Shown: piece by piece, positions 35,789 to 47,952 of the stretch
How positions within the stretch are numbered: the stretch's first letter is position 1
Layout of the letters: each line of letters begins with the position of its first letter
DNA from: Chitinophagaceae bacterium
GTDB taxonomy: Bacteria > Bacteroidota > Bacteroidia > Chitinophagales > JADJOU01
Reading direction: 5' to 3'
Length of the DNA: 64,000 bases
Assembly (NCBI GenBank): GCA_017495115.1
Contig: JAFEIJ010000015.1
Location: 3,553 to 67,552, forward strand
Program-made: the position numbers and the translations under genes
The notes under the pieces: model-generated
What the model was told of the DNA's origin: nothing
The model's input: only the letters and a program-made list of their open reading frames with translations
Databases searched by the model: none

Positions 35789-38155
35789 ATGACAAAATGG
35801 TCTTCATTAGAAAACTTTATCCATGAGATTGAATTTGATAAAGTTGTAGATATTATTTCGCAATTTTGTAGCCTAGAAAGCGGAATCCAAAAAATTAAAT
35901 CCTCAATCCTTTATACTCAGTTTAATGAGTTGCAAAATGTACATGATATCCATTTTGAATTTGCAAATATTATTCGAAATCAAATGGAATTTGGAAGTCG
36001 AAGAAATGATATTCTGCATTTATTAGAACATGTAGAAGTTGAAAACTTTTATTTAGAAGCTTCTGAAATTTTACAAATAAAAAAAACAATAGAAAATATT
36101 GGAGCCTGTAAAGCTTTTTTTGAAAAAACAGAAAACGCGAATAATTTCCCAAAACTGCACCAATATTTTATCAAAATATTTCACGACAAATCTTTAACGA
36201 ATTTAATTTCAAAACAAATTGACGAAAAAGGAATTGTTAAAGACGATGCATCGCCTAAGTTGCTTGAAATTAGAAACTTACAAAAACGTATTTTTAAAGA
36301 TATCGACCAAGTTTTTAGAAAACAAGTCAGTAGCTATAACGAAATGGGCTTTTTGGCCGAAACCGTAGAAAGTATCCGAAATGGACGACGCGTATTGGCT
36401 GTAAAAGCCGAAAAAAAGAGAAGTATTAAAGGAATCATTCATGATGAATCCGAGTCGGGAAGTATTGTATATATTGAACCCAATGCGCTGATTGAGCTTC
36501 ATAACGATGCGTTAAATATTGAAAATGAAGAAAAAAGAGAAATTATTAGAATTCTTAGGGTACTTACAAATCAAATCGGTACGCATAAAAAGTTACTTTT
36601 AATCTATCAAGAAGCCAATACCAATTTGGATATTTGGAACGCCAAAGCACAATGGGCAATAAAAATGGAATGTAGTCCGGTTGAAATTGCAATACAAAAT
36701 CAAATCAAACTCGTTAAAGCTTTTCATCCATTACTAAAATATAAAAATTCAAACGAAGGTAAAAAAACAATTTCTTTTGATGTAGACTTAAATCAAAATC
36801 AAAAAATGTTGATGATTTCGGGGCCTAACGCCGGAGGAAAATCTATAACGCTCAAATCTATCGGTTTACTCGTTTTGATGCATCAAATGGGCTTTCCCGT
36901 TCCTGTAGAATCTGGAAGCAAATTGCCTTTATTAAAAAAATACTTTTGCGACCTAAGTGATAATCAATCGATTGCAGATGAACTGAGTACGTATTCTTCT
37001 AAAATTGTAAGATGGAAACAAATACTCAATGAAGCTCAATCCGAAACTTTAATTTTAATGGATGAAATGGGTTCGGGAACCGATCCCAGCTTTGGAGCCG
37101 CAGTGGCTCAAGTGATTTTAGAATCTTGTATCGAAAAAAATAGTTTTATTGTTTGCACCACGCATTTTGGTACGCTTAAAAAATGGGCAGATCAAAATAA
37201 AAATATCATCAACGCTTCGATGCTTTTTGATGAAGAAAAATTGGAACCTTTATATATTTTAAAATTAGGAAAACCTGGAAGTAGTTATACCTTTCATATT
37301 GCAAAAAAAATGGGACTTCCTCATGAACTCATCAATAAAGCCGAAAAACTTTCGAATACAAAACAAGTAGAATACGACCGCATGTTGATGAATTTGGAGT
37401 TGAGAGAAAAGGAACTGATGAAACAAAAGGAAGCCTTAGAGCAAAATGAAAATGAAGCAAAAAAACAAATCAAAGATTGGAAAAAGATTTCAAACGAACT
37501 CGATTTATTGAGAAATAAAGTGAAGTTTGAACGTATGGTGTTTTTGAATGAAAAAGAAATTGAAAAACAAAAAATCATTAAAAAATATCACGAAGAATTA
37601 AAGCAAAAAGAGAAAAAAGAAGATTTGAAAACCATTGAAAAGGAAGTGATTAAAACCATTCAATCGAATCAAGAAAAAATAAAAGAAACCTATAAAGAAA
37701 TTCATAAAATACCCGAAAAACAAGAATTTAAACCCGGCGATTTTGTGCAATATATTCAAACCAATGCCATTGGCAAAATAGAAAAGATTGAGAAAAATAA
37801 AGCTATCGTTATTTTTGATCATCTCAAATCAAGTGTACCGATTTCTGATTTGATAAAGCTCAATGCAAATCCTCAAAAAAGTATAAAAGCCAAACAAAAA
37901 ATTGATGTTTCGAACACCAAAATTGATAATGTGTTGGATATTAGAGGCTTATTTTTGTCTGAAGCGATCGAAGAGGTTGAAAAATTTGTAAATGACAGTA
38001 TCATTCAAAATAAATTTCAAGTAAAAATCATTCACGGACGCGGCACGCTTCGCAATGAAATATTGAAATTATTAAATAAAACAAGTGTCATCGAAAAAAT
38101 AGAGTCTGCCAATGCATCCGATGGTGGCGAAGGCGCAAGTTGGATTACGTTTTAG
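35789..38155 (+). CDS. mutS2: endonuclease MutS2
   Basis: 788 aa. Walker A GPNAGGKS, MDE.GSGTDP, a coiled-coil linker, and a C-terminal Smr domain (LDIRG......V.IIHGRGTL). Confidence 0.9.
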   Translation: MTKWSSLENFIHEIEFDKVVDIISQFCSLESGIQKIKSSILYTQFNELQNVHDIHFEFANIIRNQMEFGSRRNDILHLLEHVEVENFYLEASEILQIKKTIENIGACKAFFEKTENANNFPKLHQYFIKIFHDKSLTNLISKQIDEKGIVKDDASPKLLEIRNLQKRIFKDIDQVFRKQVSSYNEMGFLAETVESIRNGRRVLAVKAEKKRSIKGIIHDESESGSIVYIEPNALIELHNDALNIENEEKREIIRILRVLTNQIGTHKKLLLIYQEANTNLDIWNAKAQWAIKMECSPVEIAIQNQIKLVKAFHPLLKYKNSNEGKKTISFDVDLNQNQKMLMISGPNAGGKSITLKSIGLLVLMHQMGFPVPVESGSKLPLLKKYFCDLSDNQSIADELSTYSSKIVRWKQILNEAQSETLILMDEMGSGTDPSFGAAVAQVILESCIEKNSFIVCTTHFGTLKKWADQNKNIINASMLFDEEKLEPLYILKLGKPGSSYTFHIAKKMGLPHELINKAEKLSNTKQVEYDRMLMNLELREKELMKQKEALEQNENEAKKQIKDWKKISNELDLLRNKVKFERMVFLNEKEIEKQKIIKKYHEELKQKEKKEDLKTIEKEVIKTIQSNQEKIKETYKEIHKIPEKQEFKPGDFVQYIQTNAIGKIEKIEKNKAIVIFDHLKSSVPISDLIKLNANPQKSIKAKQKIDVSNTKIDNVLDIRGLFLSEAIEEVEKFVNDSIIQNKFQVKIIHGRGTLRNEILKLLNKTSVIEKIESANASDGGEGASWITF

Positions 38156-38445
38156 GAATTTAAATCCATCGTTTTATTTTTTTGTTTAATAGCAATGATA
38201 AGAAAATTTATTGATTTTTTTTTGGATATTTTTATTTCCATCTATTCTCAGGCTGTGGGTTGCATAGACTTAATAAGGTAAAATGAATACGAATGGTTCG
38301 AAGCACTAATTATCAAAGATAAATATATTAAAAATACGAAATAATGGAATATAGCTATACCCTATGTAAATACTCTAAAAATGTTAATTATTTATAAAAA
38401 TTTTAATATTTGTAAAAATTATTTTATAATTGCATATATTAACGA

Positions 38446-38454
38446 GTTAGCGGT
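38446..38454 (+). repeat. GTTAGCGGT half-site, exact reverse complement of the ACCGCTAAC start of elements A and C
   Basis: 67 nt upstream of the GmrSD-like ATG. It pairs conceptually with 40361-40369. Confidence 0.5.
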
Positions 38455-38521
38455 CATTTTAGGAGAACCACACAAATCCAACAAACGACAAGTCTACAAA
38501 AAACAAAAGACAGTAAAAAAT

Positions 38522-40351
38522 ATGGCAAAAAACATTGAACCAACTCTGAAATTAATAAGCAAATTCCTTAAACTCGACAAATCCGAAAACTTTGTAATTC
38601 CTGAATATCAGCGTGGTTACTCTTGGGACATAGCTCAATGTGATAAATTATGGCAAGATATTGAAGCGTTTATTGCTTCTAACGCAAGCGATCCGTATTT
38701 TTTCGGTACAATCATTGTAGATTGTTCAGAAACTCACAAATTCAGCTTAATTGACGGACAACAACGCACAACGACTTTTTTGTTATTACTTAAAGCTTTG
38801 TTAATACAATTAAATGAAGCGATTCCAAAAGTTTCTGACGATGAGGAATCAGAAGCACTTAAAGCAGGACTAAAAGCCAACAGAAATAAAATTATGGCGA
38901 TTTTGTATAAAGCAGAAGATGAAGACATTCCTTCAATGCTAAAAGATTATGCTAAAACGCAAAACATTTTGATAATAGAAAATAAATCAATAAACGAATT
39001 ATTTCCAAATGAAGTAAAAACAATTATTGAAGCCGCAGACTTCATTTCATCTGAACAGAACGTCTATAAAATTCCACGAAAACAAAAAGACAATAAATAC
39101 ACAAATCACTTTCGCAACTTCAAATATTTTTTTAGCAAATTAGGCGAAAAGCCAGAATCTCAACTAAACCAATTTGCGAAAATATTTTTGGAGAAATGCC
39201 AAGTTATTGAAATTCGCAGTTGGCAAATTGAGCAAGCGATTACTATGTTTAATTCGCTAAACTCTACTGGTATGCCACTTTCTGATGCCGACATAATTTC
39301 TGCACAACTATACTCAAATGCTGGGGATGACAAAAAGGTGTTTAATGACCAATGGGAAAGTATCAATAAATTAGCAAATGAACTAAGTAACCGAAAAATC
39401 ATAGATATTGATGCTGTTTTGCAACAATTTATGTATATCAACCGTGCCATTAACAAGGAATATATAAGTATAAACAAAGAAGGAAATGAATCAGTTGATG
39501 TAACAACACCAGGTTTAAGAAGATATTATACTGACATTAAAAAAGAATTATTGAATGAACCATTGATGTTGTGTAATGACTTAGCTAAAATCACAACTAT
39601 TTGGAACAACATTAAAGATTATCCGACCGTAAAATTGCTTTTAAAATGTAACGAAAATGCTAAGTTATTTTTGTCAGCATATTTACATCGTTACGAAATC
39701 ACAGAAATCACAGAAGAAATTATTTTAGACTTGTGTGAGTGTTTACTAAGATTATTTACAATTTTAGAATTGAGTGATGCTGGTTATTCAAGTTCTAAAT
39801 TTAAGACGTTTTTGTTTGGTGAGAACATTAAATTAGTTGACAAAAATGTTTCAATTGACACTATCAAAAATAATTTCAATGAACATATTTCAAACAATTG
39901 GAAAGAAGACACAATTTCAGATGCAATTATTGAATATGATAAAAATTTACTTGTTTTTATTAACGAATATCTTTACTCTAAAACCAAAGGAACAAAGTTT
40001 GACTTTACAGAAAATGTAAACATTGAACATATAATGCCTTCAAGTGGTCGCAATATAACGACAATACAACAAGACGCAAATATTGCTACCAAAGAAGAGT
40101 TTAATAGTGTAGTAAACAAACTTGGAAACAAAATATTACTTGAAGAAGACATAAATAAGTCAATTGGACGAGAATGGTTCAAGACAAAAAAGCAAAATTC
40201 AATTGATAACAAATCTGGTTTCAAGGATAGTAAATATAGTATTGCTTTGGCATTAACATCATATCCAAAAGAAACTTGGACAAAAGACGATATTGACACT
40301 GCAACATTAAAAGCTACAGAACGAATAGTGGAATTTATATTTAACAAATAG
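38522..40351 (+). CDS. GmrSD-like DUF262 / DUF1524 domain protein (putative modification-dependent or NTP-dependent nuclease)
   Basis: N-terminal FVIPEYQRGYSW and IDGQQRTTT (DUF262, ParB-like NTPase). C-terminal NIEHIMP...NKLGNKILLEEDINKS (DUF1524 His-Me finger). ATG 38522 (MAKNIEP) is preferred to the ORF-track start 38381, whose extension is low-complexity. Confidence 0.8.
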   Translation: MAKNIEPTLKLISKFLKLDKSENFVIPEYQRGYSWDIAQCDKLWQDIEAFIASNASDPYFFGTIIVDCSETHKFSLIDGQQRTTTFLLLLKALLIQLNEAIPKVSDDEESEALKAGLKANRNKIMAILYKAEDEDIPSMLKDYAKTQNILIIENKSINELFPNEVKTIIEAADFISSEQNVYKIPRKQKDNKYTNHFRNFKYFFSKLGEKPESQLNQFAKIFLEKCQVIEIRSWQIEQAITMFNSLNSTGMPLSDADIISAQLYSNAGDDKKVFNDQWESINKLANELSNRKIIDIDAVLQQFMYINRAINKEYISINKEGNESVDVTTPGLRRYYTDIKKELLNEPLMLCNDLAKITTIWNNIKDYPTVKLLLKCNENAKLFLSAYLHRYEITEITEEIILDLCECLLRLFTILELSDAGYSSSKFKTFLFGENIKLVDKNVSIDTIKNNFNEHISNNWKEDTISDAIIEYDKNLLVFINEYLYSKTKGTKFDFTENVNIEHIMPSSGRNITTIQQDANIATKEEFNSVVNKLGNKILLEEDINKSIGREWFKTKKQNSIDNKSGFKDSKYSIALALTSYPKETWTKDDIDTATLKATERIVEFIFNK

Positions 40352-40460
40352 AAACACCGAACCGCTAACAGCAGTTTGGCATAATGGCGGGTTCAGTGCT
40401 AAATTGAAAGTAAGTGCTTCTAAATCCGCCACTTCTCCAAGCTGCAAAACGGTTGGCGGT
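40352..40460 (+). repeat. element A: 109-nt GC-rich imperfect palindrome (attC-like) after the GmrSD-like gene
   Basis: Three stem segments read by hand: ACCGCTAAC (40361-69) / GTTGGCGGT (40452-60); GCAGTTTGG (40371-79) / CCAAGCTGC (40437-45); TGGCGG (40385-90) / CCGCCA (40426-31). There is a 6-nt one-sided bulge AAAACG. It starts 1 nt after the stop codon. Confidence 0.75.
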
Positions 40461-40491
40461 AATGCTAAATAACATTGTGTAAAAATAAACT

Positions 40492-42009
40492 ATGGCAAAA
40501 AAGAAAAGCAGGATTAGACAAACTAGAACAAGTTTTCAGAAAGTTTTCGATAATTATCCTGATATGATACGACCATTTTCTTGGTCAGATAGATTGCCTG
40601 AATTTTTACATATATCTATTGCTCTAATAGATAATGACTATGAGGTTGTTAAGGAAGATTTTCATAAGATTGCAGACCTAGTAAATGGGAAATTTCATTA
40701 CGATAGAAAGTTTCATTTTAATCTTTCACATACTTTAAAATTAATTGTAGAAGATAATAGCATTCTAGACGAAATATTAAAAACATCATTTAAAACTGCA
40801 TTTCAACAAATAATTTTATTCTATAATAATTTGTTTCGTGATTTATTAAATTTAAAGGTGAATATTAATAGTGAGCCAGATCGTCGGAATATTTTTTTAG
40901 GATATAAATCAATACTAAATGGTAGATCTGATACATCAATATTATGCAAATACATGATGTTGCAATATACACAAACTGGTAATCCAGATCCATTTAATTT
41001 ATTCAACTGGGATACCACAGAAATCATACTTAACAAATTGAATGTTTCCAAAGTTATGTCTGCTTTTTCTCCATCTATTGGACTTTCAGAATATTTAGAT
41101 TTAGAACTTTGTGAAAACATATGGTTATATAATTATTACCTCTCTCCTCCTATGCCAAAACCTGATGATACTACGATTGAAGAACTACATTATAAAGAAT
41201 TAAAAATGAAGGAATTCACAGATAATTTTATTGATTTATTTGCGGAAATAAAAAAAATTAATCTTTTAGAATTTTATACCCCTTTTATAGCAGAAGTCAA
41301 TATGGGATTCATCGCTAGGATAGGCAATTTAACTATAGATACTGTCGACCTAGTAAAAATTCATAAAGGAGAAATTGCAGAAATGGTATTTAGAGTAACA
41401 TTAGAAACATTTATTGTTGGTTCATGGTTATTAACAAAACAGGACATAGAATTACATAAAAGATTTAGAGATTTTAGTACTGGGAGACAACGATTTTTTG
41501 GTGAGCAAGTTCTTCAAAAAGCGACAAGTGATAGAATGAAAAATGAGGCGAAAAGTATTATTGATGATGCTATAGAAGATTCTGGCAGAAGACACATTGA
41601 CGTTGCTACTGAGAAAGGAGATGTTTTTGACATAAATATAATGCAAATGTCCAACGAAGTATGGGGTGAAGAAAATATCTATTATTTTTTATACAAAAGG
41701 TCATCAGAAGTTACACATGGTCGATGGGAAATAATCGCAAAATATCATTTAGCAAAAAGCTACAATCCAACACACAATGGATTATATTTTTACAATGAAA
41801 ATCCTAACCGATTTGCTGGACTAATTCCAGCGTTCGGAAGTCTTATTTTAGCTACTGATTTTTTGATTAGAATAATTAATGATATCAATGACGAAAGATA
41901 TAATGAACTTACTGAAAAATTAAATAACTATTATTATAGATTATATGAGCAATATATGGTTTACTATAATGATTATGTATTAAACGATAATAAAAATAAA
42001 GCAGAATAA
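40492..42009 (+). CDS. hypothetical protein, family unknown; C-terminal half HEPN-like (DUF5677/AbiV-like?)
   Basis: 505-aa ORF with a clean ATG and no overlap. The only motifs I can point to are FRVTLE (R301..E305) and YKRSSEVTH (R403-x5-H409), which together resemble the helix-1 R..E and Rx4-6H signatures of HEPN-type Abi proteins. Nothing is recognised in the N-terminal 250 aa. Confidence 0.6.
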   Translation: MAKKKSRIRQTRTSFQKVFDNYPDMIRPFSWSDRLPEFLHISIALIDNDYEVVKEDFHKIADLVNGKFHYDRKFHFNLSHTLKLIVEDNSILDEILKTSFKTAFQQIILFYNNLFRDLLNLKVNINSEPDRRNIFLGYKSILNGRSDTSILCKYMMLQYTQTGNPDPFNLFNWDTTEIILNKLNVSKVMSAFSPSIGLSEYLDLELCENIWLYNYYLSPPMPKPDDTTIEELHYKELKMKEFTDNFIDLFAEIKKINLLEFYTPFIAEVNMGFIARIGNLTIDTVDLVKIHKGEIAEMVFRVTLETFIVGSWLLTKQDIELHKRFRDFSTGRQRFFGEQVLQKATSDRMKNEAKSIIDDAIEDSGRRHIDVATEKGDVFDINIMQMSNEVWGEENIYYFLYKRSSEVTHGRWEIIAKYHLAKSYNPTHNGLYFYNENPNRFAGLIPAFGSLILATDFLIRIINDINDERYNELTEKLNNYYYRLYEQYMVYYNDYVLNDNKNKAE

Positions 42010-42010
42010 A

Positions 42011-42180
42011 AGCACTAAAGCACTACCTCCAACACAGGTTTTGCAAGATTGCGACTTCTGGACTTAATTTGAAGTTGGTTTTGTATCTTTGAATTCAGTG
42101 TTTAACCGAAAGGTTCGGTTTCATTAGTCCGCAACCTCGCAAAGCCTGGGGACGTATAGCGAACCGCAGAAACCGACCGA
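42011..42180 (+). repeat. element B: divergent member of the same family after the 505-aa gene
   Basis: It shares ..CCAACAcaGGTTTTGCAAgA...CTTAATTtGAAG with elements A and C. Segmented stem 42035-42064 / 42126-42148 (CAGG/CCTG, TTTTGC/GCAAAG, TTGC/GCAA, GGACT/AGTCC). Inner perfect hairpin AACCGAA-AGG-TTCGGTT (42104-42120). Confidence 0.6.
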
Positions 42181-42210
42181 AAATTCAGCAAAAAAAAGAA
42201 ATTAAAATCG

Positions 42211-42235
42211 TAAATTTGCGACTTATATAAATTTG
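42211..42235 (+). promoter_or_regulatory. two tandem -7-like boxes TAAATTTG (42211-42218 and 42228-42235) upstream of the methyltransferase gene
   Basis: Both match TAnnTTTG. The proximal box is 12 nt before ATG 42248. They lie just after repeat element B. Confidence 0.5.
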
Positions 42236-42247
42236 ACAATTTAAAGA

Positions 42248-44404
42248 ATGAATTTAATAGATACGGGAATAGAAAAAGGACTAATTTGTTTTGACGAAGA
42301 CAAGAACTTTATCACTTACATACACCAAAATAAGAAAAGGAATTACAACAATCCCGAAGAAAAAGTACAAGCTGAAACTTTTTTGACTTTGGTGCTTATT
42401 TACGGCTACCCTGTAAACAGAATTAAACAATTTCTTTCTGTTCAAATGGGTTCAGAAACGAAAGAAGCCGACATTGCAGTTTATTCAGACGATGATTGCC
42501 ACGACACTTATATTTTAGTAGAGTGCAAAAAAGAAGATTTAACCGACCAACAATTTAACATAGCTGTTGACCAAGCATACAGTTATGCAGTTGCAGAAGG
42601 TGCAAAATATGTTTGGACAACTTCACGAATTAAAAACCAGTATTACGAAGTACCCGACAAGAAGCCAAAAAGCAGAATTGAAATTCCAGATATTCCACAA
42701 TTTGGAATTGACAAATTGGCGAAATACAAATATGTAAAAGGCGGTATTTCTCAAACTGACACAGATGCAAAACCAACCAATATTGTAAGTGAACCCGACC
42801 CAAATGTAACGCAGAAATTTTTTGAGTTGCAAGTGGTTAGCGAAAGCGAACTAACAAAAATATTTATCCAATCACACCAAGCACTTTGGGGCGGTGGTCA
42901 ACGAAACCCAAGTGTTGCATTTGACGAATTAGATAAACTCATTTTTTGTAAAATTTGGGATGAAAAACACCCAAGAAAAAACGGAGAACCCTATGATTTT
43001 CAAATTTTTAGAGACGAAGACCCCGAAGATTTATTAGACAGAGTAAAGAAAATTTATGCAGTTGGCGAAAAAGAAGCACCCGAAGTTTTCAAAGACGGTA
43101 TTACACTTACAGCACAAGAAACGCTGACGATTGTAAAATATTTTCAACGGATAAACCTTAATAAAACTGACCTTGACAGCAAAGGAAAAGCCTTTGAAAC
43201 CTTTATGGGCAGTTATTTTCGTGGCGACTTTGGACAATATTTCACACCAAGACCAATCGTAAAATTTATAGTTGACAGTTTGCCCATTACCCACAAAGCA
43301 AGGGTTTTAGATACCAGTTGTGGTAGCGGTGGTTTTTTGCTTTACGCATTAGACAAAGTAAGAGAGCAAGCCAACGAATTTTACGATATTAAAACCGAAC
43401 CAGTGGAGCATAAAGCACATTGGCATAACTTTGCCGAAAAAAATCTTTTTGGCATTGAAATAAACGACCAAATAGCCCGAACTGCCAAAATGAATATGAT
43501 TATTCACGATGACGGACACACCAATGTAATTGCTTCTGATGGACTTTTGAGTGATGTAGAAATGCAAGTAAAATCGGGTAACAAAGAATTTAAGTACAAT
43601 TCGTTTGACTACATAATTACCAATCCACCTTTTGGCAGTAGCATAAAACAAACCGAAAAAGCCTATTTGCACCAATACAATTTGGGTAAAAAAGACGAAG
43701 ATTGGTTGGCTGTAAAAGCACTTAAAGAAACTACAAGAGATAGCCAAAGTACCGAAGTATTATTTTTGGAGCAATGTCATAAGTTTTTGGTAGAGTTTGG
43801 AATGATGGCTGTGGTAATACCTGACGGAATTTTAACTAATAGCAGTTTGCAATATGTACGAGACAATTTGGAAGAAATGTACCGTATTGTAGCCGTTGTA
43901 TCTATGCCACAAACAGCCTTTAGTGCCACAGGTGCAGGTGTAAAAAGTTCGGTTTTGTTTTTGCGTAAACATAAAACCAAACAAACCGAAAAAATAAGCA
44001 ACCAAAAAGCCAAACTAAAATTAGACGTAAAAACCGACAATAAATATATTGCAACGGTAGAAAAATGGGATAAGGAAAAAGCACAAGCCATAAAAAAATT
44101 GGAAGACGAAGCCAAAACCAAAAACCCAAAGGCAACAAAAAAAGAAATTACAGAAATGATACAAGCCGACAAGTCGGCTGTACAATCTGCATTTACCGAC
44201 AAAGTAAATTTGTTTAAAGAAGAACTAACCGAAAAGTATTTTCTTGCCAAGCAAACTGCCCTTGACGATTACCCTATATTTATGGCAATAGCCGAAGATA
44301 TTGGTTACGATGCCACAGGTAGAAACACCAATAATAATGAACTAATAGAAATAGGTAAAGAACTACAAAAGTTTATTGCTCATATAAACAAGACCGAAAA
44401 GTAA
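42248..44404 (+). CDS. hsdM: N6-adenine DNA methyltransferase (HsdM/gamma-class) with an N-terminal HSDR_N-like PD-(D/E)xK domain
   Basis: Motif I is LDTSCGSGGFL and motif IV is ITNPPFGS. The N-terminal ~135 aa carry EAD(75)IAVY...YILVE(92)CK(94), a PD-(D/E)xK-like pattern as in the type I R-protein N-terminal domain. A Lys-rich coiled-coil insert lies near the C-terminus. It ends 1 nt before hsdS. Confidence 0.85.
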   Translation: MNLIDTGIEKGLICFDEDKNFITYIHQNKKRNYNNPEEKVQAETFLTLVLIYGYPVNRIKQFLSVQMGSETKEADIAVYSDDDCHDTYILVECKKEDLTDQQFNIAVDQAYSYAVAEGAKYVWTTSRIKNQYYEVPDKKPKSRIEIPDIPQFGIDKLAKYKYVKGGISQTDTDAKPTNIVSEPDPNVTQKFFELQVVSESELTKIFIQSHQALWGGGQRNPSVAFDELDKLIFCKIWDEKHPRKNGEPYDFQIFRDEDPEDLLDRVKKIYAVGEKEAPEVFKDGITLTAQETLTIVKYFQRINLNKTDLDSKGKAFETFMGSYFRGDFGQYFTPRPIVKFIVDSLPITHKARVLDTSCGSGGFLLYALDKVREQANEFYDIKTEPVEHKAHWHNFAEKNLFGIEINDQIARTAKMNMIIHDDGHTNVIASDGLLSDVEMQVKSGNKEFKYNSFDYIITNPPFGSSIKQTEKAYLHQYNLGKKDEDWLAVKALKETTRDSQSTEVLFLEQCHKFLVEFGMMAVVIPDGILTNSSLQYVRDNLEEMYRIVAVVSMPQTAFSATGAGVKSSVLFLRKHKTKQTEKISNQKAKLKLDVKTDNKYIATVEKWDKEKAQAIKKLEDEAKTKNPKATKKEITEMIQADKSAVQSAFTDKVNLFKEELTEKYFLAKQTALDDYPIFMAIAEDIGYDATGRNTNNNELIEIGKELQKFIAHINKTEK

Positions 44405-44405
44405 T

Positions 44406-45851
44406 ATGAGCAGTTACACAATTTCTAACCCAGCACTCAACCCAAAACGAGTTTTTATTTTGCAAAAAAGCGAATTGGAAAAACGATGGGACTCATACTT
44501 TTATTTGCCACAATTCAAAATCTTAGAAGATAAATTAAAGAAAAAAAATGTAAAGTGTATTTCACAAATAGCTGAAAGAGTGTTTTCAGGTTCTACCCCT
44601 TTAAGTAAAGGAGATTCATATACTGAAGACAAGATAAATGGTATACCGTTTGTAAGAAGTGGCGACTTTACAATTGAAGGCTCAATTGATTTTAATAATT
44701 TAGTATATTTAAAATCAGAAATTCATACAACACAATTAAAATCTTCTCAACTAAAAGAAAATGATTTACTTTTTGCAATTGTTGGTGCTACAATTGGGAA
44801 AGTAGGAGTTTATAAAAGTGATAGACCTGCAAATATCAATCAAGCAATTTGTGCAGTAAGAATAAAATCAAATTATAATATTGATTATCTAAACGCATAC
44901 TTTCAAACGAAATTAGGTCAAAGTCTAATTGACAGAATTAAAAGACCAGTAGCAAGAGCAAATGTAAATCTTGACGAAATTTCCACATTACCTATAATTT
45001 TACCAGATGAGGTTATACAGCAAAAAGTAATTTCTATATTCAATAGTTCATTATCCCAAAAACAAACCAACGAAGCCGAAGCCGAAAAACTATTGGCAAG
45101 TATTGATGATTATTTATTAGGCGAGTTGGGTATTACTTTGCCGACACCACCCGAAAATACGTTGAAGAGTAGGATGTTTATTGCAAACAGTAAAGACATT
45201 TTGGGAAGTAGATTTGACCCACATTTTAATAAAACTTTCTACAATGAAGTTTTCAATTCCTTTTCAAAAAGCAAATTCAAGGTTTTAAAAATTAAAGATG
45301 TTTTAGAAAACATCAAAACAGGAACAACACCAAATCAAAAGTTAGAACCTTATGCAGACGAAAACGGAATTGTATTTTTAAGAAACACTAATCTTAAAAA
45401 ATACAACATTGATTTATCCGACACAAAATTTATAAAAACTGAGTTAGCAAAAGAATTGACATATTCAGTAAAAGACGAAGTAATTATGTGTATTGCAGGA
45501 ACAGTCGGACTTTCAGCAGTAAATAAAATAGATAAGCCATTTTCAATCAATCAAAATGTTTCGGCATTAAAGTTTTTTGACAATCATATAAACCCTGACT
45601 TCGCTTCATATTGGTTTAATACGGATATTTTTCTAGAACTAACAAAAAGGGCTTGTTCTGTGGCGACAATTTTTTATTTAAATAACGACAATTTAAAACT
45701 TTTACCAATCCCTGTTCCACCCATTAACAAACAAAAAGAAATAGCCGAGCATATAACCAATATAAGAAACCAAGCCCAAGCACTAAAAGACCAAACCAAA
45801 GACTTGCTCAAAAAAGCTAGTGAAGAAATAGAAGAAATATTACTAGACTAA
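44406..45851 (+). CDS. hsdS: restriction-modification specificity subunit (HsdS, two target-recognition domains)
   Basis: 481 aa. Duplicated TRD architecture with two conserved helical spacers (NEAEAEKLLASIDDYLLGELGI and IRNQAQALKDQTKDLLKKASEEIEEILL). Translationally coupled to the methyltransferase. Confidence 0.85.
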   Translation: MSSYTISNPALNPKRVFILQKSELEKRWDSYFYLPQFKILEDKLKKKNVKCISQIAERVFSGSTPLSKGDSYTEDKINGIPFVRSGDFTIEGSIDFNNLVYLKSEIHTTQLKSSQLKENDLLFAIVGATIGKVGVYKSDRPANINQAICAVRIKSNYNIDYLNAYFQTKLGQSLIDRIKRPVARANVNLDEISTLPIILPDEVIQQKVISIFNSSLSQKQTNEAEAEKLLASIDDYLLGELGITLPTPPENTLKSRMFIANSKDILGSRFDPHFNKTFYNEVFNSFSKSKFKVLKIKDVLENIKTGTTPNQKLEPYADENGIVFLRNTNLKKYNIDLSDTKFIKTELAKELTYSVKDEVIMCIAGTVGLSAVNKIDKPFSINQNVSALKFFDNHINPDFASYWFNTDIFLELTKRACSVATIFYLNNDNLKLLPIPVPPINKQKEIAEHITNIRNQAQALKDQTKDLLKKASEEIEEILLD

Positions 45852-45873
45852 ATAGACAAACGACACGAAGAAA

Positions 45874-46014
45874 AAACACCGAACCGCTAACAGCCGTTTT
45901 GCAAAAGCTGGGGTTTAGTGCTTAATTGAAGCTTTGTGCTTCGAATCAAGTTCAGTGCTGGCAGACAGTTTTGTGCTTCGAAAACCGCTTCTTCGCCAAG
46001 CGCCGAAACGTTAT
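45874..46014 (+). repeat. element C: ~140-nt member of the same family after hsdS
   Basis: Its first 21 nt, AAACACCGAACCGCTAACAGC (45874-45894), are identical to 40352-40372. The central unit GTTyAGTGCT..TTTGTGCTTCGAA is duplicated (TTTGTGCTTCGAA at 45933-45945 and 45970-45982). It ends ...CCGAAACGTTAT. Confidence 0.75.
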
Positions 46015-46022
46015 TTGCTCTA

Positions 46023-46057
46023 CTCGTCCTCGTCTTAGCGAAGTGATGACGAGGATG
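46023..46057 (+). repeat. GC-rich hairpin element D2 (inverted copy of D1)
   Basis: CTCGTCCTCGTCTTAGCGAAGTGATGACGAGGATG, with stem TCCTCGTC/GACGAGGA. It directly abuts element C. Confidence 0.7.
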
Positions 46058-46139
46058 CATAAGTGTGAAATGAAATTTAAAGGATTAAATTAAAAGTTTT
46101 TTATTTCATAAACATATTTATTGCATTTTCAAAAACTTA

Positions 46140-46541
46140 CTATTTCTTTTTCTTCAGTTGATTCCATCTTAAGCTAACGCCTACTCCAATATTCCATTGA
46201 CCATTTTGTGTTGCCGTTTTTGGGTTATAATACAAAGGAATTTGAAATGCTACGGCACGATACGAATAGGTGAGTCCAATGCCTAAAGTTGGCGTTACAA
46301 AAGCATTTTTTGTAGTTCCTTGATCTTCTTTAAAACGAAGTGAAGGCAACATACTTAACATTACTTTGGAGTCATTTAAATTAGCGGTTATGCTTGGTCC
46401 TGCAAAATTTAAATATCCACCTTGATTCACATAACCAACAACTAAAACACCATCGAAGGGTAATAAATTGATTTTAGTATCTTGAGCATATAGCCAAGAA
46501 CTAACTATTAATAGAAAAACGGTAAAATATTGTTTTTTCAT
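46140..46541 (-). CDS. small secreted / outer-membrane beta-strand protein (hypothetical)
   Basis: Signal peptide MKKQYFTVFLLIVSSWLYAQ. Alternating hydrophobic pattern. A CAAAAATA box lies 14 nt upstream. Confidence 0.45.
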   Translation of the reverse strand: MKKQYFTVFLLIVSSWLYAQDTKINLLPFDGVLVVGYVNQGGYLNFAGPSITANLNDSKVMLSMLPSLRFKEDQGTTKNAFVTPTLGIGLTYSYRAVAFQIPLYYNPKTATQNGQWNIGVGVSLRWNQLKKKK

Positions 46542-46555
46542 TTTTAAATTTTCAT

Positions 46556-46563
46556 CAAAAATA
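46556..46563 (-). promoter_or_regulatory. -7 box TATTTTTG (small OMP gene)
   Basis: CAAAAATA on the plus strand. 14 nt upstream of ATG 46541. Confidence 0.5.
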
Positions 46564-46654
46564 ATTCGTTTTTACAAATAAACTAAAATTTGTTAATTTT
46601 TTGATTAAAAATTTGCGTTATCTACATTAACATATTTAATAACAAAAAAAATAA

Positions 46655-46680: not shown

Positions 46681-47952
46681 ATGATTCCAATTCATAAAAT
46701 TAAGCAAAATCAAGAAGCCGTAATCGAAGCATTAACGAAGAAACATTTTAAAGATATTTCATTAATTGATACCTTAATTGAAAAAGATGAAGCGCGTAAA
46801 AATGTTCAAAAAAAATTAGATGATGTTTTATTTGAAGTCAATTCCATTTCGAAAGAAGTTGGAAATTTATTTAAACAAGGAAAAGCCGAAGAAGCCGAAG
46901 TTTTAAAAAACAAATCTTCTGAACTAAAATCGACCACGGAAAATCTTTCTCAATCTTTAAAAAGTATTGAAAATGAAATTCATGACATTCATATTCAATT
47001 CCCTAATATTCCACACGAGAGTGTACCTAAAGGTAAAACCGCGGAAGATAATACGACAGTAAGAAGCTGGGGTACACGACCTATTTTAGCAAAAAATGCG
47101 GTTCCACATTGGGATTTAGCTTCAAAATATGATTTATTTGATTTAGATTTAGGTTCTAAACTTACAGGTGCGGGATTCCCGGTATTTAAAGGAAAGGGTG
47201 CCAAATTACAAAGAGCGTTGGCTCAGTTTTTTTTAGATGAAAATACGGCCGCAGGTTACCAAGAAATTATTCCTCCTTTGATGGTTAATGAAGCGTCTGC
47301 TTATGCTACAGGGCAATTGCCCGACAAAGAAGGTCAAATGTATATCATCAATGAAGAGCGACCTTTTTATATGATTCCTACCGCGGAGGTCCCTGTAACC
47401 AATATTTATCGTGATAAAGTGTTGTCATTGCAAGATTTACCTGTTAAACTTACCGCATTTTCGCAATGTTTCCGAAGAGAAGCAGGAAGTTATGGAAAAG
47501 ATGTACGAGGATTAAACCGAGTACATCAGTTTGATAAAGTGGAAATTGTACAATTAGTAAACCCTGAAAACTCATACCAAATTTTAGAAGAAATGACGGC
47601 TCATGTTGAGGGAATTTTACAAAAATTAGGTTTAGAATATCGCGTATTACTTTTATGTGGCGGGGACATGAGTTTTGCATCCGCTAAAACGTATGATTTA
47701 GAAGTGTATAGTGCCGCGCAAGAAAAATGGCTTGAAGTCAGTTCGGTTTCTAATTTTGAAGATTTTCAGACCAATCGATTAAAAGCAAGATATAAAGACG
47801 AGGAAGGAAAAACAAAACTTTGTCATTCTTTAAATGGTAGTGCCTTGGCTTTACCTCGTATTTATGCCGCTATTTTAGAAAATTATCAGACGGAAGATGG
47901 TATCAAAATTCCAGATGTTTTAGTTCCTTACACTGGATTTAATAAAATATAA
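46681..47952 (+). CDS. serS: serine--tRNA ligase
   Basis: N-terminal coiled-coil arm. Class II motifs FRRE.GS.G.D.RGL.RVHQF.KVE and GSALA.PR. Confidence 0.95.
   Translation: MIPIHKIKQNQEAVIEALTKKHFKDISLIDTLIEKDEARKNVQKKLDDVLFEVNSISKEVGNLFKQGKAEEAEVLKNKSSELKSTTENLSQSLKSIENEIHDIHIQFPNIPHESVPKGKTAEDNTTVRSWGTRPILAKNAVPHWDLASKYDLFDLDLGSKLTGAGFPVFKGKGAKLQRALAQFFLDENTAAGYQEIIPPLMVNEASAYATGQLPDKEGQMYIINEERPFYMIPTAEVPVTNIYRDKVLSLQDLPVKLTAFSQCFRREAGSYGKDVRGLNRVHQFDKVEIVQLVNPENSYQILEEMTAHVEGILQKLGLEYRVLLLCGGDMSFASAKTYDLEVYSAAQEKWLEVSSVSNFEDFQTNRLKARYKDEEGKTKLCHSLNGSALALPRIYAAILENYQTEDGIKIPDVLVPYTGFNKI

Follow-up and report, generated by a model that had tools for sequence, protein, structure and literature searches.

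Integrons are the best-known gene-capture system of bacteria. The crossover that joins their cassettes falls between the G and the TT of the GTT core, and a domain specific to the integron integrase IntI holds the extrahelical bases of the cassette-borne attC sites. Here, we analyzed a stretch of 64,000 nucleotides (hereafter, the window) from a Chitinophagaceae bacterium of the phylum Bacteroidota (NCBI GenBank assembly GCA_017495115.1, contig JAFEIJ010000015.1, positions 3,553 to 67,552 of the forward strand), in which an initial annotation made from the sequence alone had proposed an integrase-less array of defense genes, each unit followed by an attC-like imperfect palindrome (sites A, B, and C). 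This proposal is supported by our analysis: judged from the window and from related loci in other genomes, the segment 38446–46012 most probably represents a three-cassette defense-gene array of an integron-like system that is widespread in Bacteroidota.

The known integrons provide the frame for this comparison. Vibrio integrons carry defense cargo (bioRxiv 10.1101/2024.07.02.601686), and both group IIC-attC introns and attC-targeting insertion sequences (ISs) have been described for integron attC sites (PMC3001079). For Bacteroidetes proper, the accessible part of the IntegronFinder 2.0 survey of complete genomes gives only In0 elements from earlier work and one complete integron, in Salinibacter ruber (PMC9024848), and a later paper places Bacteroidota among the clades in which earlier work had found no integrons. 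Surveys thus far describe integrons as scarce or missing in most of the phylum. In the full-text literature, whose journal coverage is incomplete so that an earlier description is possible, we found no prior account of the site family described here.

The family shares much with integron attC sites such as the Vibrio cholerae repeats: both are imperfect palindromes of 100–145 nt with AAC and GTT boxes, structure is kept more than sequence, one site follows each open reading frame (ORF) or small gene group in the same orientation, the crossover (here, the apparent one) lies between G and TT so that the 3' half of the box goes with the next cassette, and sites within a lineage are very similar. 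Defense and toxin–antitoxin genes are likewise carried as cargo, as in Vibrio integrons. The family departs from integrons in its outer box, CCGCTAAC/GTTAGCGG in place of RYYYAAC/GTTRRRY; in a strongly asymmetric spacer (1 versus 5–6 nt); in a consensus with conserved T.G and A.C positions instead of bulged extrahelical bases; in a sequence that is conserved phylum-wide; and, in the window, in the large size of the cassettes (1.7–3.9 kb). The platform also differs, comprising a structured attI-like site and, above all, a candidate recombinase without the IntI domain, and no intI with the additional domain was found among the window ORFs searched or at the heads of related arrays.

Phyletic distribution and architecture of the site family

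To recover the family, one genome per species was scanned with a 20-nt pattern from the 5' end of sites A and C, and blocks of up to 8 kb were retrieved. This yielded at least 118 genome blocks, of which at least 115 contain full-length elements. The hosts are almost all Bacteroidota and include many Flavobacterium species, Pedobacter, Kaistella, Chryseobacterium, Chitinophagaceae, Saprospiraceae, Cytophagales, and Bacteroidales; one locus among the family matches listed comes from an Ignavibacteria metagenome-assembled genome (MAG). Carrier contigs binned to Limnohabitans, Caulobacter, and Bifidobacteriaceae have a GC content of 29–41%, and because of this low GC, the contigs in these non-Bacteroidota bins are probably mis-binned Bacteroidota. 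The wider set of such element contigs (L015, L034, L036, L073, and L074, in Caulobacter, Limnohabitans, Sphingomonadales, and Bifidobacteriaceae MAGs) spans 29–45% GC.

A profile of the family detects at least 244 copies in these loci, with two or more copies in at least 58 loci, four or more in at least 19, and up to nine per 8 kb. Among the matches listed, copies within one locus always lie on one strand, and the longest ORF between neighboring copies shares the orientation of the sites in 113 of 121 units. A cassette unit has a median length of 1.05 kb, and its stop codon, which in 13 cases is supplied by the TAA within CTAAC, lies a median of 12 nt 5' of the site. The cargo is very diverse, the largest homology group having 8 members among the 549 ORFs of the loci listed. 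The layout first proposed for the window, in which co-oriented ORFs are each followed by one site, therefore recurs in the related arrays, where each site lies directly 3' of an ORF, and the copies in other genomes are tied to gene ends in uniform orientation rather than placed at random.

In the consensus, CCGCTAAC and one further base lead into a stem arm of ~20 nt, which is followed by a ~70-nt loop, the other arm, AAAAC, and GTT. Across aligned full-length copies, AAC is retained in 185 of 192 and GTT in 168 of 192, and sequence conservation collapses right after GTT. When folded, CCGCTAAC pairs with GTTAGCGG in an outer helix of 8 bp, which is followed by an unpaired spacer of 1 nt on the 5' side and 5–6 nt on the 3' side, an inner helix of ~17–20 bp with conserved non-Watson–Crick positions, and a variable loop, giving a site of ~105–145 nt. 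Covariation is pervasive: compensatory (double-sided) changes are found at 17 of 17 stem pairs and total 349, against 121 in shuffles; the stem cells are paired at 87.5%, against 64% in shuffles; and neither observed value was reached in any of 500 shuffles. Stem registers slid by one to three columns are paired at 35–44%. The conserved non-Watson–Crick positions are a T.G (73 of 97 copies), an A.C (87 of 97), and a second A.C (59 of 97). The initial annotation had suggested a look for conserved extrahelical bases, which in attC sites mark the recombined strand; the consensus fold of the family shows these positions and the asymmetric spacer and has no conserved single-base bulge. Folded with DNA parameters, 65 of 97 copies are more stable as the bottom strand than as the top strand.

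Cassette boundaries and the crossover signature

Because the integron crossover lies between G and TT, the bases that follow a GTT belong to the next cassette and should complement its AAC box. We examined this in the 29 neighboring pairs whose AAC boxes differ and which are, in this respect, informative. The 7 nt after the GTT of one site agree with the reverse complement of the 7 nt before the AAC of the next site at 5.3 of 7 positions (at six or more in 19 pairs), whereas agreement is 2.7 of 7 with the box of their own site and 3.25 of 7 in random pairs. Homology blocks between genomes have corresponding limits, as 8 of 20 long blocks end 2–7 nt past the G of GTT in both partners. The window follows the same rule. 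GTTAGCGGT, which the initial annotation had noted 67 nt upstream of the first gene, is indeed present at 38446–38454 ahead of the ATG at 38522, and it complements ACCGCTAAC of site A at 9 of 9 bases; GTTGGCGGT of site A complements ACCTCCAAC of site B at 8 of 9 bases; and GTATAGCG of site B is complementary to the site C box at 7 of 8 bases if one inserted base is allowed. At the level of sequence, the cassette signature of integrons is present at these boundaries.

Individual cassettes of the window reappear elsewhere. The DUF5677 cassette has an 82% identical copy in Flavobacterium bomense (L132), lying between two family sites of a four-site array, with other neighbors and at a different chromosomal place; the homology (window 40452–42017, L132 9960–11518) has the G of the upstream GTT as its exact starting point. 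HsdM is 86–96% identical in Flavobacterium, Saprospiraceae, Chitinophagaceae, Cytophagales, Sphingobacteriales, and Ignavibacteria, and such identity across several Bacteroidota classes and Ignavibacteria points to a recent horizontal spread of the HsdM module. In another Chitinophagaceae genome (L143), hsdM lies inside an attC-like array, and in a Saprospiraceae genome (L142), it follows a junction in which ...C directly precedes GTTAGCGGT. The leader of the window hsdM is ~220 nt shorter than in these two copies, homology starting only at 42202, a loss that is consistent with the damaged core of site B. In a Zobellia locus (L133), the GmrSD and DUF5677 genes are both present, yet nothing in this locus matches the site profile. 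Comparison of the window cargo proteins with the at least 118 loci by tblastn gave nothing useful.

Sites and cargo of the window array

Sites A–C were scored with a family covariance model trained solely on copies from other genomes, without window sequences. All three were recognized: site A at 86.6 bits (E 1.3e-17), site B at 84.0 bits (E 4.8e-17), and site C at 121.8 bits (E 1.7e-25), yet with 4 non-standard stem pairs in the last; the next-best match in the window has 13 bits. The 21-mer AAACACCGAACCGCTAACAGC, described as the common beginning of A and C, is found on the + strand at 40352 and 45874 and nowhere else in the window (0 of 100 shuffles matched), and the shared motif AACANNNGTTTKGCA has its exact matches in the window at these three sites only. 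Searches with the 21-mer, AACANNNGTTTKGCA, and the covariance model found no further family copies in the remaining 56 kb of the window. Mutual alignment confirms that A, B, and C are homologous, with A and C sharing 72 nt at 81% identity.

The three sites differ in their state of preservation. The stem initially sketched for site A agrees with the family pairing (an 8-bp CCGCTAAC/GTTGGCGG helix, the one-sided spacer AAAACG, 9 bp, and 6 bp), and its hairpin has a z-score of −2.0 to −2.4 against shuffles; apart from its short loop, this site is intact. Site B is the best folder of the three (z-score −3.55, bottom strand), and its end, first placed at 42180, lies at about 42163. Folding into an imperfect palindrome, claimed for all three, thus applies to A and B (z −2.0 to −3.5), whereas C folds no better than shuffled sequence (z +0.4 to +1.1). 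The AAC and GTT boxes are likewise both found in A and C, whereas B combines AAC with GTA. "GC-rich", as the elements had been called, is apt in a relative sense: they have 44–48% GC, against a background of ~30%. The loop of site C shares 90% identity with an attC-like site of L143, and the sequence of the site suggests a hybrid, with a 5' stem arm from one subtype and a 3' stem arm from another. Directly 3' of site C, at 46021–46056, a 10-bp inverted repeat (TCGTCCTCGT ... ACGAGGATGCA) lies outside the family consensus and resembles a terminator-type hairpin. Short-read metagenome contigs of the same strain (L120 and L127) stop at 45954, within site C, and at 38433, just before the first GTT; repetition of the sites within that community would be expected to cause such breaks.

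The array occupies the gap between mutS2 (35789–38155) and serS (46681–47952), which carries four co-oriented genes arranged in three cassettes (Table 1). The product of the first gene matches Pfam GmrSD_N and GmrSD_C and, in PADLOC, HEC-06, Orf5, and SspE-like entries; look-up returned no exact protein record for this 609-aa product because the gene caller chose a 656-aa start. In the third cassette, hsdM (42248–44404) encodes a protein with an N-terminal HSDR_N_2 nuclease-like domain, and hsdS occupies 44406–45851. A Pfam search of 28 of the larger ORFs of the window returned housekeeping genes and no Phage_integrase match, in line with the integrase-less array first proposed.

Table 1. Coordinates of the putative cassettes, attC-like sites, and left junction in the window
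Feature	Position	Strand	Description
Left array junction	38431..38454	+	TGCATATATTAACGA joined to GTTAGCGGT; first GTT core 38446-38448
Cassette 1	38447..40452	+	GmrSD-type (DUF262/DUF1524) type IV restriction enzyme gene 38522-40351, plus site A
attC-like site A	40356..40461	+	R'' box CCGCTAAC 40362-40369; R' box GTTGGCGG 40452-40459; short variable loop
Cassette 2	40453..42154	+	DUF5677 protein gene 40492-42009 (Pfam DUF5677), plus site B
attC-like site B	42020..42163	+	R'' box CCTCCAAC 42026-42033; 3' core GTA at 42154-42156
Cassette 3	42155..46010	+	Two-gene restriction-modification module hsdM-hsdS, plus site C (Pfam, PADLOC)
attC-like site C	45878..46019	+	R'' box CCGCTAAC 45884-45891; R' core GTT 46010-46012

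Candidate recombinase and attI-like region

Tyrosine recombinases encoded in the at least 115 loci listed belong to one family only, which is present in 8 loci and always on the upstream side of the array. Relative to the cassettes, the gene is divergent in three loci and co-oriented in four; in L089, where it is divergent too, an IS91 transposase gene is its partner and a truncated site lies alongside. Six of the eight loci clearly show a GTTAGCGG-type junction (...ATATA..A followed directly by GTTAGCGG) in the interval that separates the recombinase gene from the first cassette; L092 has only weaker candidates, and L089 has the truncated site in place of the junction. Loci in which the junction was located in this interval are L054, L058, L076, L014, L116, L068, and L132.

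The best match of these proteins is the NCBIfam model "XerA/integron integrase" (187–239 bits). Against TIGR02249 "integron integrase", they score 175–238 bits, above XerC/XerD and under the cut-off of 265. They resemble both IntI (VchIntIA, PDB 2A3V) and archaeal XerA (PDB 5HXY), and they have a C-terminal SP(L/F)D tail in common with IntI. Their alignment to VchIntIA covers residues 13–179 and 242–318 only. As 19 residues stand where IntI has 62 (~43 fewer), the array-head recombinase, unlike IntI, lacks the IntI-specific domain; some members have an extra N-terminal domain of 70–110 residues. A site without bulges and an enzyme without the domain that holds bulges would fit together. We lean slightly toward the view that this Xer/IntI-like protein is the recombinase of the sites, and its identity is the weakest link of our reading.

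Upstream of the arrays, a conserved attI-like region of ~100 nt was recognized, which in several loci forms a hairpin with the loop CTACCCATAATTTGGTGTATA before the junction. In the further loci that a profile of this region matches, the match invariably lies upstream of the first site by one cassette. In three loci (L014 4683–4799, L068 4939–5057, and L132 8937–9054), the attI-like region, itself a hairpin with a conserved loop, starts with TATATTTG. The −7 promoter consensus of Bacteroidota is TAnnTTTG; TATATTTG fits it, points into the cassettes, and may be the equivalent of the integron Pc promoter. A search of the whole window with the attI-like profile gave no match, and a search of the left flank matched only 38431–38457, at 10.5 bits. 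The window retains only the last ~27 nt of the attI-like region, the resemblance being limited to the junction-proximal part.

Proposed mechanism and present state of the array

Each cassette begins with the TT of one GTT core, closes with the G of the following core, and carries its site at this end. By analogy with integrons, the site would fold as single-stranded DNA, and a tyrosine recombinase would cut within the AAC/GTT core; the cassette would leave as a circle, which would enter either at the attI-like site (...ATATA..A followed by GTTAGCGG) or at another attC-like site. At a broader level, we consider the chances about even that the family constitutes a gene-capture class of phylum-wide reach, with an attC class of its own (CCGCTAAC...GTTAGCGG, no extrahelical bases), a structured attI-like site, and a Xer/IntI-like recombinase without the IntI domain. 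Such a class would be either an independent invention or near the integron ancestor, and its arrays would act as banks of defense and toxin–antitoxin genes that move between classes.

Several results weigh against these readings. Rfam release 15 returned no match, either for the whole window at gathering thresholds or for 38000–46500 at E up to 10. Within the array, the core of site B is mutated and the stem of site C is defective. The candidate recombinase falls short of IntI by the residues noted above, and the strong conservation of its 280-aa Bacteroidales form would also suit a housekeeping Xer; when homologs of this form served as the starting point, three of four distinct contexts had sites nearby and one had none. 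At least four loci with an attI-like region have a housekeeping gene upstream and no adjacent recombinase. A tyrosine recombinase gene is also paired with an IS91-type Y2 transposase gene, once in L089 (2978–5261) and twice in L134 (13156–15391 and 17877–20112). The last such point comes from a related strain (L128, ~97% identity), whose mutS2–serS gap holds a different 2.7-kb insert without sites; its two unrelated genes encode a 303-aa outer-membrane-like protein and a 516-aa lipoprotein. Homology with this strain breaks at window 38230 and 46626, and the variable segment (38231–46625, equivalent to 12435–15146 of L128) is larger than the array, which in this one close strain indicates replacement rather than clean insertion at the sites.

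The strain comparison at the GTT boxes, which the initial annotation had suggested as a check, accordingly has a single partner and a variable segment whose ends lie off the sites, and it speaks neither for nor against insertion at the sites. A 133-aa minus-strand ORF of the window (46140–46541) is also missing from L128. For a clean empty site, exact-protein look-ups returned the same strain only, with contigs that break at the array. On the sequence comparison, the mutS2–serS gap is a strain-variable hotspot, and the array probably came in or was exchanged when a larger segment recombined homologously. Nothing shows recent site-specific activity at this locus. The window array is probably a sedentary, decaying remnant comparable to an attC-site cluster that has no integron-integrase (CALIN), given that no recombinase was found in the 64 kb, the structured part of the attI-like region is missing, the core of B is mutated, and C is a hybrid.

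Alternative explanations

The strongest competitor is an ordinary integron remnant, that is, a CALIN with canonical attC sites whose canonical IntI, with its specific domain, would be encoded elsewhere in the genome or lost. The family shows all the architectural features of attC arrays, and three successive sites with no integrase gene found in 64 kb agree with a CALIN, in which two or more attC sites lie without an integrase nearby; the category itself rests on the attC model of IntegronFinder, whereas the sites here are defined by a family-specific model, so that the array is a CALIN only if these are counted as attC. Integrons are, moreover, reported in members of Bacteroidota sensu lato, namely Chlorobi, Ignavibacteria, and Salinibacter, in the accessible part of the survey (PMC9024848), and the family has its Ignavibacteria MAG locus (L032). 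We nevertheless regard this explanation as unlikely: no IntI with the long insertion is encoded in any of the at least 115 array-bearing 8-kb blocks, in which the sole recombinase family is the short form, and the consensus site lacks bulged bases. An indirect argument points the same way, as the accessible text of the survey names one complete Bacteroidetes integron, that of Salinibacter ruber, though the family is common in Flavobacterium and its relatives (PMC9024848).

Alternatively, the hairpins could be the ends or preferred targets of another element, an IS91-type rolling-circle transposon with an accessory tyrosine recombinase, that moves the cassettes. The pairs of recombinase and Y2 transposase genes, found once in L089 and twice in L134, would be its trace, as they abut attC-like sites that have lost their 5' end. 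Most arrays have no Y2 transposase, and in L054, L058, L116, and L068 housekeeping genes, not a transposase gene, stand on either side of the recombinase. The truncated sites next to the pairs fit insertion into a site and not a site serving as the end of an element, which suggests an IS91-like element that inserts into attC-like sites; we therefore consider this alternative very improbable. Least credible of all is the initial annotation's own fallback of repetitive extragenic palindromic (REP) or miniature inverted-repeat transposable element (MITE)-like repeats between genes, or of transcription terminators, neither of them involved in gene mobility, since these would account for GC-richer hairpins just past stop codons in an AT-rich genome, and a folded site may slow transcription, but the other 56 kb of the window have no copies where dispersed repeats would be numerous and in either orientation, the arrays are always co-oriented and placed after ORFs, the elements are ~130 nt long and do not require a T-run, and neither the complementarity of neighboring boxes nor the inter-genome homology breaks at GTT are predicted.

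Implications and elements associated with the sites

If arrays of this integron-like family are active, a major phylum whose bacteria live in soil, water, and the gut would have its own cassette system, one that standard tools would probably overlook because they demand the IntI-specific domain. Were the reading true, cassette recombination of the single-strand type would be possible without that domain, which bears on the evolution of IntI from Xer, and the occurrence of defense genes at ~90% identity between classes, such as the HsdM–HsdS module, would be explained. The sites also offer a simple sequence handle for finding new defense genes in Bacteroidota, and several cultured type strains carry large arrays. 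Such arrays comprise 8 sites in 8 kb in Flavobacterium terrae DSM 18829 (NZ_FQZI01000010.1), 9 sites in Pedobacter sandarakinus (NZ_JAPIVG010000004.1), and 6 sites in Kaistella jeonii DSM 17048 (NZ_JSYL01000002.1); the F. bomense locus is on RYDJ01000016.1. In F. saccharophilum DSM 1811 and F. myungsuense CECT 7649, the order is recombinase gene, attI-like site, and cassette.

Like integron attC sites with their group IIC-attC introns and attC-targeting ISs, the family has group II intron reverse-transcriptase genes and ISs in or beside its sites; unlike the attC-targeting ISs of integrons, those found here are of the IS91 type with an accessory tyrosine recombinase. Reverse-transcriptase genes of group II introns adjoin attC-like sites in L002, L108, L085, L097, and L134, and in L002 and L108, an intron-like 5' end (GTGTGC) stands directly after the 3' stem arm (...CGCCAAG). 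In Bacteroides heparinolyticus (L139 4470–9777), four genes adjoin a conserved 281-aa recombinase in divergent orientation. This block comprises a 48-aa gene, a trypsin-TPR gene, a reverse-transcriptase gene, and a 390-aa gene; at its end the site profile gives a weak partial match, and the block may be a large defense cassette.

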